Below, piece after piece: positions 28 to 10,371 of a stretch of 64,000 nt of DNA. Each line of letters starts with the position of its first letter. The first letter of the stretch is position 1. The stretch is from Desulfuromonadales bacterium (GTDB lineage Bacteria > Desulfobacterota > Desulfuromonadia > Desulfuromonadales > BM103), in NCBI GenBank assembly GCA_051305855.1, contig JBPPMB010000044.1, forward strand, positions 4,686 to 68,685, given 5' to 3'. Position numbers and translations under genes: made by a program. The notes under the pieces are model-generated. The model had not been told where the DNA came from. It saw only the letters and a list, made by a program, of their open reading frames with translations, and ran no database searches.

Positions 28-270
28 TCATTCTAGCAGATATTCAAATCCTTCGATGTCGGTGAACTCCTCGACCCCCTCGGTTTTTATGGCTTCAAGC
101 CCTTCCCGGATGGCTTCATCAGCCGAGGGAAAGAACTCTATCCAATTTGAACTGACCCCCAATGTGTTAATCACTGAGAGCATCCACTCTCTCTCACCGA
201 TCCGAGTTGCAATAATCTCCAGTCTAACGCCGTCCATAACGACGGATTGTATCCGTTCCTCTTCATACAT
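28..270 (-). CDS. Hypothetical 80-aa acidic protein (cassette ORF)
   Basis: Intact ORF with GGAGGGG 5 nt upstream of the ATG. No motif recognised. Lies downstream of attC-like element 371-448. Confidence 0.45.
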   Translation of the reverse strand: MYEEERIQSVVMDGVRLEIIATRIGEREWMLSVINTLGVSSNWIEFFPSADEAIREGLEAIKTEGVEEFTDIEGFEYLLE

Positions 271-370
271 AAGTCCCCTCCGTGATGTGTTCGTGCCTCA
301 GTTAAACAATAAATGGCAAACATAATATGCAATCCAAAGAAAAACTGTATTTCCCGAAGGCTAACGATTC

Positions 371-448
371 CCATAACCAGCGGGCCACCCGAACTAGACC
401 GACAGGCCGCAAACGTTCTTCACGTCTGCGTTTATGGGCTGGTTATAT
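371..448 (-). repeat. attC-like junction element 3 (minus-strand reading: ATATAAC ... GTTATGG)
   Basis: Imperfect palindrome ATAACCAGC ... GCTGGTTAT (78 bp) starting 3 nt after the hydrolase stop. Its opening 7-mer is the exact complement of GTTATAT at 1354-1348. Confidence 0.6.
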
Positions 449-2808: not shown

Positions 2809-3040
2809 GTTTAAGTTGTTGTATGTAAATGCACAAAATGCCGTGCAAACTGACAGCCTGAAAACAAAAATATCCAGAACAAAACCCGAGTGGAGCGTAT
2901 CGGTTTGCGCTGGACGATTGTCACTATTTCCCCCTCAGCGTGCTGTTAACATCTATAGATGACAGTACTTTCTGATTCCGGTATCTTAGTTACATTTAAT
3001 GCCTTTGGCAATGTTATTGATTCACTCCCTGGAAGGGACC

Positions 3041-3225
3041 ATGCAGAAACCACGTCTGCTGTATCTGAAGCGCGAATCGTGCCGGGTCCATCATGACAGC
3101 CCACGCACAGAAAAAACTACATTCAATGGATTAAGCGCTACATCTACTTACATGACAAGCGCCATCCGCCCGAGATGGACAAGGTCGAGTTCGAAGCGTA
3201 CCTGTCCTGACTGGCGGAGCATCGC
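3041..3225 (+). pseudogene. intI: Remnant of an integron-integrase-type tyrosine recombinase (N-terminal SAM-like domain only)
   Basis: Frame 1 reads MQKPRLLYLKRESCRVHHDSPRTEKT. After a 1-nt frame slip near 3116-3118 the next frame reads YIQWIKRYIYLHDKRHPPEMDKVEFEAYLS, then TGA (3208-3210) where IntI proteins have Trp, then LAEHR. This matches the IntI N-terminal pattern HYSxRTExxYxxWIxRFIxFHxxRHPxxMGxxEVxxFLSWLA. No catalytic domain follows, because the next gene starts at 3326. Confidence 0.6.
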
Positions 3226-3325
3226 ATCATGAGGTCGCCACGGTTTTCTTGACCCACAAACGAGAGCAGGTATTATTCTTAACAGTCCCTCAGACCTGCC
3301 ACCCCACTCTGAAAAGGATCGCCAC

Positions 3326-4507
3326 ATGCATATACGCTCTTTCAATCCCCCCGTCCGCACCCTGATGGGCCCCGGCCCCTCCGATGTCCATCCACGGGTT
3401 CTCGAAGCACTCTCCCGGCCGACCATCGGCCATCTGGACCCGGCCTTCATCACCATGATGGACGAGCTGAAGGAACTGCTGCAGTACACTTTCCAGACCA
3501 GAAACGCCCTGACCATGCCGGTCTCAGCTCCCGGCTCGGCGGGCATGGAGACCTGCTTCGTCAACATGGTGGAGCCGGGCGACAAGGTGATCATCTGCCA
3601 GAATGGTGTTTTTGGCGGCCGCATGAAAGAGAATGTCGAGCGCTGCGGTGGTGTCGCAGTAGTGGTGGAGGATGCCTGGGGCGAAGCCATCGATATCAAC
3701 AAGCTTGAAGAGGCGTTGAAGGTTCATGGCGACGCCAAAATCGTAGCCATGGTGCATGCCGAAACCTCCACCGGGGCACAATCGAACGTGGCGGCCCTGG
3801 TCAAGCTGGCCCATGATTATGACTGCCTGACCATCGTCGATGCGGTGACTTCCCTGGGCGGCACGCCGGTCAAGGTCGATGAATGGCAAATCGACGCCAT
3901 CTACTCCGGCTCGCAGAAATGCCTCTCCTGCACCCCCGGCCTCTCACCGGTGAGCTTCAACGAGCGTGCCCTGGAGAAAGTCCGCAACCGTAAGACCAGG
4001 GTGCAGAGCTGGTTCATGGACCTGAACCTGGTCATGGGCTACTGGGGATCCGGCGCCAAACGTGCCTACCATCACACCGCTCCCATCAACGCCCTTTATG
4101 CGCTTCACGAGGCCTTGCTGATCCTGCAGGAAGAAGGTCTGGAACATGCCTGGGCCCGTCACCGGAAGAATCATTTGGCGCTCAGGGCGGGGCTGGAGGC
4201 GCTGGGACTGCAGTTCATCGTCAAGGAGGCCGACCGTCTGCCACAGCTGAACGCCGTCACCATCCCTGCGGGTGTTGATGATGCCGCCGTGCGCAGCCGC
4301 CTGCTCAACGAATACAACCTGGAGATCGGTGCCGGTCTTGGCGCCCTGGCCGGCAAAGTCTGGCGCATCGGTCTCATGGGGCATGCCAGCCGCGCCGAAA
4401 ACATTCTACTCTGTATTGGCGCTCTCGAATCGGTGCTGGGGAATATGGGCGCCAACATCAACCTTGGCGTCGCCCTGCCGGCCATGCAGCAAGTACTCAA
4501 TAACTGA
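3326..4507 (+). CDS. Class V pyridoxal-phosphate aminotransferase (alanine-glyoxylate / serine-pyruvate type)
   Basis: 393 aa. LMGPGPSDVHPRVLEA N-terminus and SGSQKCL PLP-lysine motif. Confidence 0.85.
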   Translation: MHIRSFNPPVRTLMGPGPSDVHPRVLEALSRPTIGHLDPAFITMMDELKELLQYTFQTRNALTMPVSAPGSAGMETCFVNMVEPGDKVIICQNGVFGGRMKENVERCGGVAVVVEDAWGEAIDINKLEEALKVHGDAKIVAMVHAETSTGAQSNVAALVKLAHDYDCLTIVDAVTSLGGTPVKVDEWQIDAIYSGSQKCLSCTPGLSPVSFNERALEKVRNRKTRVQSWFMDLNLVMGYWGSGAKRAYHHTAPINALYALHEALLILQEEGLEHAWARHRKNHLALRAGLEALGLQFIVKEADRLPQLNAVTIPAGVDDAAVRSRLLNEYNLEIGAGLGALAGKVWRIGLMGHASRAENILLCIGALESVLGNMGANINLGVALPAMQQVLNN

Positions 4508-8200: not shown

Positions 8201-8323
8201 TTCGCTCAGCCAGGAGCGGACAATGCCGTCCAGGAGTCGGTCGGCAGTCAGCCAGAGACCGCCAGCCACCAACAGCAGCACCAGCAAGATCAAGCCGATC
8301 AATATGCGCACGCCTCTGCTCAT
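5285..8323 (-). CDS. ydbH: YdbH-like AsmA-family large envelope protein
   Basis: 1012 aa with an N-terminal TM helix and a long repetitive beta-rich body. The C-terminal GIDLYQLTNTFEFGEINGIADGYIHGLRL ... YRYRKIGIxCWLQND block resembles the DctA-YdbH domain. Confidence 0.7.
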   Translation of the reverse strand: MSRGVRILIGLILLVLLLVAGGLWLTADRLLDGIVRSWLSERAAVELDAEVELEKLAYADGSLHLIGLTLIRPGELRLEVAAIDVQFAWSGLLQRRISELVIHDPQLIWMAAAQETAAEPATWPQDAPLSIDSWRLENGRVELSWGERKLLLDQLAAEGGLGRQFPFAMTANIGVAPGVPASLVGNARWQDGLALTLEELSWDEKNLLAQPVSVEPGVDTALGATLGLKQLDDTEVGELLAALGEPAPWPADLHWQVTAPALEFRLRDGGLEAKLQSGAGSLQTAGQHWPWLSMTLELQGDPDSLELAATIGLAGDTSFALTGAWAEQKLNGSWSVAAESPVEFLQSIGMAMPTAAPVPSDLKMQGLIEADRNSARISKAGLVSNLGKLGTLAGDMHSEWRDRRLTLACDRLTLTSRDGKTPLAEATLSLAGTPAESDWQGNWSLQVADVTRLALSSGYPLPAGQPELQELSLQGKLRFQNERLSLPGIDLSGKLTGTGFSGRLHGRLALQTAPGMDLAIMLEAVTLDKFDYQAEDGMAGLVGGKLDLSGRLELTGERIHFDLSGQAGAGEALVDSWYGSLEGLPVNFVVKGNWLGDRQRLELSAADVDLAGLVSGRFSAVYVEGETSLSGQAEVAEMQGAFQKTLQALAGELLPGIDQASLSGRLMLEGAARQREGSWGLDLVITPTDVTIARGQDIRVDGLHGRLPVHLRQGASATDALAETANLQWTRLQAGLLNSGPGRMQLQASANRWRLQLPLKLTVAGGELSLTDLQLDLPNLVPQLRASLAVQDVELLQISRSLDWPEMGGRLNASLEEVRIAGDEISTIGDASMHVFGGDFSINNIRVESPFSRFPTYHADVDFSGIDLYQLTNTFEFGEINGIADGYIHGLRLFDGTPSAFRAKFETRSEGTRNISVKAIRNLNTLSMGGLSAALSQGIYQFIDFYRYRKIGIVCWLQNDLFHLQGTAREGSEHHLVYGGLLPPRIDVIVSSPTISFKEMMSRLKRIERADN

Positions 8324-8367
8324 AAGAATAACTCTACAGCAAGAAAGGTCTCCTGGCGCCTTATTCC

Positions 8368-9996
8368 TCAGTAATTTTCATGTCCGCTCTTGTGCAGGTA
8401 ATAATCGTAACCCCCCTCGTAGGAGATCATCTGCCCATGATCGATTGCGAACACCCGCGAAACCAGCGACCGCAGGAAATGACGATCGTGACTGACCAGG
8501 ATCACGGTGCCAGCGAAGTTTTTCAACGCTTCGAGCAGCACTTCCCGTGACTGGATATCGAGATGATTGGTCGGTTCATCGAGCACCAGAAAATTGATCG
8601 GCCGGGCCAGCAGCATCGCCAGCACCACACGGCTCTTCTCTCCCCCGGAGAGCCTGTCGATACGTTTGTCGACATCATCGCCCTGGAACAGGAAGGCAGC
8701 ACAGAGGTTGCGAATTACGCCGATCGAGACCATCGGCATGACGTCCTGAACGGTTTCGAAGACGGTTTTTTTCGGCTCGAGCAGGTCCATCGAGTGCTGG
8801 CTGAAATAGCCGAGGTTGACGTTGGCACCGATGGTCACGCTGCCGGAGGTCGGTTCGACCTGGCCGGCCAGGCACTTGAGGAAAGTCGACTTGCCGGCAC
8901 CGTTAACCCCGACCACGGCGATCTTCTCGCCACGCCGAATCAGCCCGGAAACGCCGCCGAAGACAGACTTCTGTTTGCCCTCAGCCAACGGCCAGCTCTT
9001 GGCCAGCTTGTCGAATCTGGCCGCGTCGTCGCCTGAGCGCGGCGGCTCGGCAAACTCAAATTTAACAACTTTTTGCTCGGAGGGGATTTCGATGCGCTCG
9101 ATCTTCTCCAGCTTCTTGACCCGCGATTGCACCTGGGCGGCATGTGAAGCCCGGGCAGCGAAGCGGCTGATGAAATCCTCTTCCTTGGATAGCATCTCCT
9201 GCTGGCGACGGTGGCTGGCAACCAGCTGCTCAAGGCGGATTTCCCGCTCGCGCAGGTAGAAATCGTAGTTGCCTCCATAGGTTGTAATGGTGCCGGCGCC
9301 GACCTCGATGATGCGGGTGACCAGGCGGTTCATGAACTCGCGGTCATGGCTGGTCATCAACACCGCACCCTTGAACTCGGTTGCCAGCCAGTTCTCCAGC
9401 CAGACGATCGATTCGATGTCGAGATGGTTGGTCGGCTCATCGAGCAGCAGCACATCAGGGTTGATGGTCAGGATTTTCGCCAGAGCGATGCGCATCTTCC
9501 AGCCGCCGCTGAAGCTCTCCACCGGTCGGAGGTAATCCTCGGGACCAATGCCGAGACCGGTCAGCACGGCCTGGGCGCGGTTCTCCAGGTCGTAGCCGCC
9601 GCGATGTTCGAACTCCTCCCGGGCATCGCCGTACTTCTCCAGCAGTGCCGCCAGGGCATCGTCGTCTATCGGCTCGCACATTGCCGCTTCCATGGTTTTG
9701 ATCTCTTCACCGAGCTGCATGGTGCGGGCGGAGGCCGCCATGACCTCGGCCAGCGCCGAACGGCCTGCCATCTCACCAACATCCTGGGAGAAGTAGCCGA
9801 TCACGGTCTTCCTGCTGCAGCTGATCTCACCACCGTCGGGCTGTTCTTCGCCGGTGATCAGGCGGAAGATCGTCGACTTGCCGGCGCCGTTCGGCCCGAC
9901 CAGGCCGCTGCGGCTGCCGGCAGTGATCTGAAAACTGGCATTCTGGAACAGGATATGGTTGCCGTGCTGGCGGGCAATATTGGTCAGATGTATCAT
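8368..9996 (-). CDS. ABC-F family ATPase (tandem ABC domains, no TM domain)
   Basis: 542 aa. Two Walker A motifs (GPNGAGKST, GVNGAGKST), two signature motifs (FSGGWKMR, LSGGEKSR), LLLDEPTNHLD and LVLDEPTNHLD, and an inter-domain linker. Confidence 0.9.
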   Translation of the reverse strand: MIHLTNIARQHGNHILFQNASFQITAGSRSGLVGPNGAGKSTIFRLITGEEQPDGGEISCSRKTVIGYFSQDVGEMAGRSALAEVMAASARTMQLGEEIKTMEAAMCEPIDDDALAALLEKYGDAREEFEHRGGYDLENRAQAVLTGLGIGPEDYLRPVESFSGGWKMRIALAKILTINPDVLLLDEPTNHLDIESIVWLENWLATEFKGAVLMTSHDREFMNRLVTRIIEVGAGTITTYGGNYDFYLREREIRLEQLVASHRRQQEMLSKEEDFISRFAARASHAAQVQSRVKKLEKIERIEIPSEQKVVKFEFAEPPRSGDDAARFDKLAKSWPLAEGKQKSVFGGVSGLIRRGEKIAVVGVNGAGKSTFLKCLAGQVEPTSGSVTIGANVNLGYFSQHSMDLLEPKKTVFETVQDVMPMVSIGVIRNLCAAFLFQGDDVDKRIDRLSGGEKSRVVLAMLLARPINFLVLDEPTNHLDIQSREVLLEALKNFAGTVILVSHDRHFLRSLVSRVFAIDHGQMISYEGGYDYYLHKSGHENY

Positions 9997-10002
9997 CGTC
10001 TA

Positions 10003-10043
10003 CCTCAAAAGAGCCGGGGAGCAGCTACCTTGCTGCTCCCCGG
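10003..10043 (-). promoter_or_regulatory. Terminator-like hairpin in the ABC-F 5' leader (candidate attenuator)
   Basis: Perfect 12-bp stem CCGGGGAGCAGC / GCTGCTCCCCGG (10014-10043) with a 6-nt loop. On the minus strand it is followed by CTCTTTTGAGG, which overlaps the GAGG ribosome-binding site 7 nt before the ABC-F ATG. Confidence 0.45.
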
Positions 10044-10371
10044 AAAATTGTCCTGCAGGGTGTACCGGCTTACTTGAAGGAACAAACGTACTCGGTGATC
10101 TCCGCGTTGACCGCAAAGGTGAAATACGAGATGGCGGTCACATCAGCACATTGTTCAGGCTTTTATCGATCACATCTGTCTCCTTGAAGCCAGGTTGAAG
10201 CCATTGCGTGTCTGTTTCCCACCTTCTACAACACACCATAACCTTTGTCACGCTCAAAACTTTTCTGAAATCCTTTCTTCTGCAAAAAATTGCAAAAGCC
10301 TGAAATCCGTCGAAGCGGGAAGGACTTTCTGCAGAAAATCGCAAAAAAACGCATATATTCCAAAAAACCTG

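Follow-up and report, generated by a model that had tools for sequence, protein, structure and literature searches.

Positions 3041–3225 of the window (the whole 64-kb stretch of Desulfuromonadales DNA analysed here) lie between a minus-strand array of small genes and a conserved aminotransferase gene, exactly where the integrase gene of an integron might be expected. The locus therefore raises three questions: whether these residues are what is left of an integron integrase, whether anything is left of its activity, and what relatives carrying the same neighbour can tell about its loss. Our analysis leads us to regard the segment, with high confidence, as a non-functional stub of a chromosomal intI, divergent to its own attI, to promoter-like sites and to a minus-strand cassette array on its left. 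The features of the locus are collected in Table 1.

Table 1. Features of the intI-stub locus in window coordinates
Feature	Position	Strand	Evidence
Cassette 4 ORF, 80 aa, no family	28–270	−	No Pfam match
attC site 3 (putative), different sequence type, weakest of the three	359–448	−	TAAC/GTTA ends, long imperfect hairpin
Cassette 3: alpha/beta-hydrolase, putative lipoprotein-type N-terminus	451–1329	−	PF00561; …LLLSGC… read from the translation
attC site 2 (putative)	1348–1451	−	18-nt motif in common with attC site 1; homologous to L002 1765–1870
Cassette 2: BrnT toxin (1655–1945) and BrnA-like partner (1429–1683)	1429–1945	−	PF04365 for BrnT
attC site 1 (putative)	2018–2123	−	RYYYAAC...GTTRRRY ends; likeness to L163 site
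Cassette 1: Phd/YefM antitoxin (2413–2691) and ParE toxin (2093–2416)	2093–2691	−	PF02604, PF05016
Candidate attI and first-cassette junction (GGCTAAC on +, i.e. G|TTAGCC, 2756–2762)	2755–2830	−	Conserved across six platforms
PintI-like promoter ATGACA-17-TATCTT	2959–2987	+	Consensus scan; putative function
Pc-like promoter TTGCCA-17-TAAGAT	3011–2983	−	Consensus scan only; putative function
intI remnant, codons 1 to ~62, in two frames	3041–3225	+	Translations, PF13495, NCBIfam integron-integrase models, identity to L001
Frameshift, 1-nt deletion at or next to the A6 run	3111–3117	+	Alignment with L001
In-frame TGA for the conserved Trp (TGG) of FLSWLA	3208–3210	+	Alignment with L001 and other IntI
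Deletion junction; ~0.8 kb (codons ~63–320 and part of the post-stop spacer) gone relative to L001	3226–3245	+	ATG–ATG spacing
Aminotransferase promoter TTGACC-16-TATTAT, right integron boundary	3249–3276	+	Consensus scan; conserved in all relatives
Class-V aminotransferase, conserved chromosomal neighbour	3326–4507	+	PF00266; synteny anchor

Reading frames, lesions and identity of the intI remnant

Translation of the three plus-strand frames of 3000–3331 reveals an ATG at 3041 followed by MQKPRLLYLKRESCRVHHDSPRTEKT in the frame starting at 3002, and a continuation, NYIQWIKRYIYLHDKRHPPEMDKVEFEAYLS*LAEHR, in the frame starting at 3001. Alignment of the DNA with the syntenic gene of a related genome (L001, contig JBPPMD010000340) places the switch between frames at the A-run at 3111–3116, where the window reads GAAAAA-ACTAC against GAAAAAGCCTAC in L001. 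Further on, TCC TGA CTG GCG GAG in the window stands against AGC TGG CTG GCC GAG in L001, and the position of the TGA is occupied by TGG (Trp) in L001 and in 12 of the 13 other aligned IntI sequences. Similarity to IntI is recognisable up to approximately 3219–3225, and the start codons of intI and of the aminotransferase gene are 285 nt apart in the window vs. 1081 nt in L001, the endpoint of the deletion being uncertain by about 20 nt. Since the attI region of L001 is just 53% identical to that of the window, this deletion is defined against a different platform subtype. No C-terminal IntI fragment is found anywhere in the 64-kb window: tblastn with the full L001 IntI matches residues 1–60 only, with a next-best E-value of 0.11, and the PF00589 catalytic domain with its R-K-H-R-H-Y residues is absent from the window. 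The additional domain specific to IntI (residues 186–245 of VchIntIA) is likewise deleted, and is present in the syntenic L001 gene. The window locus thus cannot encode an integrase.

The first-pass annotation had read the two adjacent frames as an IntI N-terminal domain with a 1-nt slip at 3113–3118, a TGA in place of the FLSWLA tryptophan, loss of the whole catalytic domain, and an end of similarity some 100 nt before the aminotransferase gene. These observations are borne out by the frame translations, the alignments, the profile score given below and the tblastn search; only the slip was placed slightly off the A-run, which is the same feature, and the last distance corresponds to the interval between 3219–3225 and the gene start at 3326.

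With one base inserted, the resulting 70-aa repaired peptide matches the Phage_int_SAM_4 profile PF13495 with 56.6 bits (E 3.4e-15, cut-off 27), which is far beyond chance. The unrepaired 31-aa second frame passes this profile by itself (31 bits vs. a gathering score of 27), and the first-frame ORF read straight through has no match in the same Pfam search. The repaired peptide aligns to positions 6–57 of the integron-integrase model TIGR02249 with 42.7 bits, below the whole-protein cut-off of 265; given this score, the frameshift and the in-frame stop, the locus is a pseudogene of the TIGR02249 family and not a member of it. Amino acid identity with the N-terminus of L001 IntI amounts to 67% over the first 60 residues (75% at the nucleotide level). 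When proteins were searched with the 62-aa repaired peptide, the word index limited the yield to two candidates, one of which is merely cut by a contig end. The tests proposed in the first-pass annotation were a search of the repaired peptide with Phage_int_SAM_4 and an intI-specific profile, and a search for an intact intI at the syntenic position in related genomes. The first yielded PF13495 and the NCBIfam integron-integrase models, the second a full-length 320-aa intI in L001, directly upstream of the same aminotransferase gene; neither a lack of resemblance to recombinase N-domains nor an unrelated intact gene at this position, the two outcomes named as speaking against the reading, was encountered.

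Assignment of the stub to the integron integrases is thus supported by the HMM matches, by the attI and promoter context and by synteny with the full-length L001 gene. Descent from a different tyrosine recombinase whose N-domain is SAM-like (a Xer-type recombinase or a phage integrase) might be envisaged because PF13495 is not specific to integrons and just 60 residues are left, with the IntI-specific insertion beyond reach in the window, but this origin is already largely refuted and hardly credible: the NCBIfam matches of the repaired peptide are two integron-integrase models only (over their first ~57–73 positions), its nearest homologues are IntI N-termini, the syntenic L001 gene passes TIGR02249 and carries the IntI insertion, the region upstream is conserved with five other IntI platforms, and an attC array adjoins the stub.

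A frameshift in a homopolymer could reflect a sequencing error, and the position of the indel in an A6 run is what speaks for the view that the lesions are artefacts of sequencing or assembly and that the organism carries an intact gene. The in-frame stop and the deletion of 0.8 kb are independent of the frameshift, and stand even if the A-run indel is an error. The TGA arose by base substitution and not through an indel. The 0.8-kb gap recurs in L002, a relative assembled independently, where the stub can be aligned with that of the window across the junction, and in the tail of a metagenome contig (L092), in which the last ~23 nt before the promoter align. Moreover, the stub shows an excess of non-synonymous change that fits long-term decay: relative to L001, dN is 0.23 and dS 0.61 (omega 0.37), vs. 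an omega of 0.10 for the aminotransferase. Altogether we hold an artefact to be very improbable. The near-invariant positions D8, V10 and F54 are altered in the stub, which forms the longest branch among six IntI N-termini (identity 0.65–0.75, vs. 0.76–0.84 among the others). The pattern of substitutions fits a stub that has been under relaxed constraint for a substantial time.

The attI region, the cassette array and the right boundary

The 290 nt extending from the first cassette to the intI ATG align with five other platforms of the same IntI lineage. Conservation among the six platforms begins exactly at the AAC/GTT crossover (2756–2762) and does not extend to the cassette side, which is the pattern expected of an attI site, so that an adjacent, divergent candidate attI is retained beside the intI stub. 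Within this region the window displays 76–78% identity to L081 and L082, with L081 as its nearest counterpart, vs. 53% to L001, L163 and L164. The hexamers of the PintI-like and Pc-like promoters sit within blocks that are invariant across the six platforms. The two divergent −10 hexamers, TATCTT (2982–2987) and TAAGAT (2988–2983), occupy nearly the same positions on opposite strands with an offset of 1 nt, and both fall in a block (2981–3022) that is largely invariant across the six platforms.

On the right side, the sequence from 3246 onward is the promoter region of the aminotransferase gene, conserved in all relatives whether or not they carry an integron. A consensus scan found no terminator-like site on the plus strand between the stub and this gene. 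Together with the conserved promoter-like hexamers upstream, and with the fact that in an unrelated contig (L081) intI is likewise reduced to its first ~59–68 codons, this might suggest that the N-terminal stub is kept as something useful, for instance as regulatory DNA for the expression of the cassettes or the aminotransferase, rather than as neutral debris. We regard such retention as quite improbable, as the promoter-like sites are located upstream of the ATG and thus outside the stub, the L002 stub has lost attI, the promoters and its first ~20 codons, the window stub gathers disabling and non-conservative changes, and two or three cases are too few for a pattern.

Left of attI, at least three cassettes bounded by predicted attC sites survive, and the array runs past the left end of the window. 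Its GC content is 40–51% (40–43% in the region of cassette 3), compared with 55–65% in the flank. The BrnA-like assignment of 1429–1683 is suggested by its position beside BrnT. According to Pfam, the content of the array is typical of chromosomal integrons. Three candidate attC sites with RYYYAAC/GTTRRRY ends are found at ORF boundaries between 359 and 2123. The first has 84% identity, over 112 nt, with a site between cassettes of L163, in an array beside an intact IntI, and comparison places members of its family in L001 and L002 too. The 18-nt motif TAACGGTTTGGAGCTGAG, common to the first and second sites, occurs in two copies in the window where 0.04 are expected, and the arrays of L001, L002 and L009 have sites of the same attC families, likewise placed at ORF boundaries. 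Single-strand DNA folding of the candidates was no better than that of shuffled sequences (z −1.2 to +0.5 for the window sites), and RNAalifold returned no consensus structure for them; support for the attC sites therefore comes from comparative conservation, not from structure. An Rfam scan of the window, in a database that has no attC family, gave as sole match a c-di-GMP-I riboswitch aptamer (RF01051, 16155–16231, minus strand, 45.9 bits vs. a gathering score of 35), unrelated to the integron. Two palindromic AT-rich repeats were also observed: GCCATATTATTATATGGCT at 1966–1996, upstream of the BrnT/BrnA cassette, which may be a toxin–antitoxin operator, and GCCATGCTGCTATATGGCT at 6–24, at the left edge of the window and just downstream of the stop codon of the 80-aa ORF (28–30).

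Of the elements that make up a complete integron, the locus retains a candidate attI and predicted attC sites, has a consensus match to a Pc promoter and lacks a functional integrase. It matches operationally the definition of a CALIN (at least two attC sites with no integron integrase within 4 kb), with three attC-like sites between 359 and 2123 and no IntI catalytic domain in the 64-kb window. The ~0.8-kb deletion took away everything from codon ~63 to the end of the gene, including the catalytic domain and the IntI-specific insertion, and left the stub within ~20 nt of the aminotransferase promoter. From what is known of tyrosine recombinases and integrons, attI x attC and attC x attC recombination would then no longer be driven in cis, so that cassettes would not be excised, captured or reshuffled from this locus. 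They would persist as ordinary chromosomal genes, expressed from the Pc-like promoter or from promoters of their own, and the two toxin–antitoxin cassettes nearest attI could stabilise the array. The first-pass description of an immobilised CALIN-like fossil is therefore apt as to the CALIN-like state and goes too far as to immobility: an integrase provided in trans could still use the attI and attC sites that remain, and a second integrase is possible elsewhere in a genome of which the window covers 64 kb.

States of the aminotransferase-linked site and probable exchange of platforms

Relatives were found by scanning representative genomes with the aminotransferase (3326–4507). The nearest are MAGs of Desulfuromonadales/Geobacteraceae, with aminotransferases of up to 92% amino acid identity, and all relatives at the locus are MAG or metagenome sequences. 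A scan of metagenomes yielded no relative closer than 89–91%, so the loss of intI could not be narrowed down to a point within one species.

At the locus, a full-length intI is found in L001 only (1866–2828), co-oriented with the aminotransferase that starts at 2947. Its product reaches 463.5 bits against TIGR02249 (cut-off 265) and aligns over residues 7–318 with VchIntIA (PDB 2A3V; E 3e-92). At residues 266–274 (2661–2687) it reads HTFQHSFAT, with Gln for the box-II catalytic Arg, vs. HTFRHSFAT in 12 of 12 aligned homologues and HTLRHSFAT in VchIntIA. This copy may thus be inactive through a missense change; alternatively, the Gln may be an error in the MAG consensus.

The other relatives point to an integron site shared by several genomes in which the integrase has decayed in different ways. 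L002 (JACZKE010000037) carries a decayed N-terminal intI stub at the same locus. Its alignment with the window begins at codon ~34, crosses the junction and reaches into the aminotransferase promoter (114 nt, ~65% identity, z 16.8 vs. shuffles). In both sequences the anchors CGCCATCC and TTTTCTTGACC are spaced 76 nt apart. In the more distant L009 only the last 36 codons (285–320) and the post-stop spacer remain upstream of the aminotransferase (9776–9880), with attC sites at 8233–8350 and 9027–9131, indicative of a different deletion at the same locus. The metagenome contig L092 (1–1250) is a mosaic of a Phd/ParE-like toxin–antitoxin cassette, intI codons 48–194 with 91% nucleotide identity to L001, an L002-like tail and the aminotransferase, which suggests illegitimate recombination between alleles of the intact and the deleted type. 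Four further relatives (L003, L005, L008 and L010) have no integron, and a small Cys-rich gene is the immediate upstream neighbour of their aminotransferase gene. This conserved ORF of 69 aa without a Pfam match is found in L002 at 188–397 (minus strand), ~4 kb from the aminotransferase, and so defines where the insertion site of the integron ends on the far side; in the window it is not seen, as the array continues past the left edge. Outside this site, L081 shows in another genomic context (10001–10258) an internal deletion, independent of that in the window, which joins its remaining N-terminal codons to the last ~13 (...KGVRSPLD). The closest full-length IntIs (87–91% identity to L001) also sit in other contexts: those of L163 (1802–2764) and L164 (391–1356), 87–89% identical to L001 IntI, have as neighbours a 2-oxoacid:ferredoxin oxidoreductase operon, and rhodanese and EamA genes. 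Being found beside such unrelated genes, this IntI lineage is not tied to the aminotransferase site.

Comparison of the flanks (the aminotransferase and ~5 kb downstream) gives the tree (window,(L001,L002)), with nucleotide identities of ~0.89–0.90 and 0.92–0.93 and dS values of 0.38 (window–L001), 0.45 (window–L002) and 0.26 (L001–L002). On the other hand, the attI–promoter region splits into two platform subtypes, with the window, L081 and L082 on one side and L001, L163 and L164 on the other. Moreover, identity between L001 and L002 is 0.69 over the aminotransferase promoter and the first bases of the gene and 0.94–0.98 further in, a drop that points to a recombination breakpoint. As platform and flank identities are discordant and two subtypes occupy one site in sister species, we infer that platforms have been exchanged by recombination at the aminotransferase site. 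L001 would accordingly be a positional counterpart, not a direct ancestor, of the window allele.

The window and L002 appear to have the deleted intI allele in common. A shared junction conflicts with the flank tree, and requires recombination or a retained polymorphism. It could also be that the two lost their integrase independently, and that the junction they have in common is nothing but the fixed right edge of the integron at the aminotransferase promoter. Vertical descent would indeed need two losses, since L001, which has the full-length gene, is the sister of L002 in the flank tree; TTCTTGACC is where flank conservation begins in every relative; and L009 and L081 testify to other independent deletions. 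Against this, the window and L002 align from codon ~34 to the promoter with small gaps only and the identical 76-nt spacing, they have junction-proximal bases in common that are missing in L001 and L009, and the drop in L001–L002 identity indicates a recombination breakpoint. We thus consider independent loss somewhat unlikely, and a shared allele as the preferred reading. Some earlier indications were not retained. In a first three-way MAFFT alignment the window and L002 seemed to have the same deletion endpoints; the comparison given here is a local alignment with shuffle control, as global alignment with cheap gap extension gave spurious scattered matches. A common right endpoint is weakened as proof of one event, given that all relatives share the flank from TTCTTGACC onward, and a possible microhomology at the two ends of the deletion (GCSAC) was set aside, since L001 does not represent the ancestral sequence.

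The first-pass annotation expected the array to date the loss of integrase activity. The changes in the stub fit a substantial time under relaxed constraint; the histories of platform and flank are discordant, and 60 codons with a non-ancestral comparator yield no date.

Relation to known integrons and significance

Decay of intI of this kind is already well documented in other bacteria. Non-functionality has been predicted for 43–46% of intI homologues, owing to stops, frameshifts and inactivating missense changes, in the survey by Cambray et al. (2011; PMC3108266) and in Nemergut et al. (2008) as cited there. That survey considered indels of up to 100 bp only and required a match to the IntI-specific domain, so a C-terminal deletion of 0.8 kb is outside its scope. 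The closest parallel is Xanthomonas, for which a recent preprint (bioRxiv 10.1101/2025.06.18.660453) describes an intI at ilvD that is mostly inactivated by frameshifts, stops and large deletions, recombination between its variants, and an abrupt drop of identity between ilvD and intI attributed to recombination. Integrons downstream of ilvD (Gillings et al. 2005, cited therein) resemble the window in their fixed site beside a housekeeping gene across a clade, in arrays that vary by lineage and in the drop of identity between housekeeping gene and intI. They differ in that the host of the window belongs to the order Desulfuromonadales, the neighbour is a class-V aminotransferase, intI lies upstream of and co-oriented with this neighbour, and our comparison draws exclusively on MAG and metagenome relatives. 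The case described here closely parallels the Xanthomonas situation, as its Desulfuromonadales counterpart.

CALINs, clusters of attC sites without an integrase, were defined by Cury et al. (2016), who found intI pseudogenes near only 15 of 279 and name loss of intI as one proposed origin (PMC4889954). The array of the window resembles them in being bounded by attC sites with no functional integrase nearby. Unlike CALINs in general, its origin is visible, as the intI stub and attI remain. To count in the pseudogene screen of Cury et al., a sequence had to cover C-terminal profiles by more than 50% (PMC4889954); a stub restricted to the N-terminus would presumably escape such criteria. With respect to VchIntIA (PDB 2A3V), the stub matches the N-terminal domain over its first ~60 residues, and all catalytic residues are missing from the window; VchIntIA itself retains the box-II Arg (HTLRHSF) where L001 has Gln.

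As integrase inactivation is known to be pervasive, the conceptual gain is small. What the locus offers is a fully dissected example of the passage from a chromosomal integron to an integrase-less cassette array in the poorly sampled Desulfuromonadales, together with several states of decay at one conserved chromosomal site. If the junction common to the window and L002 goes back to one event, the loss would be older than the split of lineages that are ~11% apart in their flanking DNA. A wider scenario, which on present evidence we think unlikely, would have the deleted allele predate the window/L002 species split (flanks ~89% identical) and persist while an intact-length platform of the other subtype circulates at the site by homologous recombination, arrays turning over without an integrase in cis; many 'orphan' CALINs might also hide N-terminal intI stubs unseen by screens with C-terminal profiles. 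The share of CALINs that arose by loss of intI may in any case be underestimated, inasmuch as stubs confined to the N-terminus would escape screens for the C-terminal or IntI-specific domain. Finally, the aminotransferase-linked site could provide, besides ilvD of Xanthomonas, a second natural system for the replacement of integron platforms by recombination.
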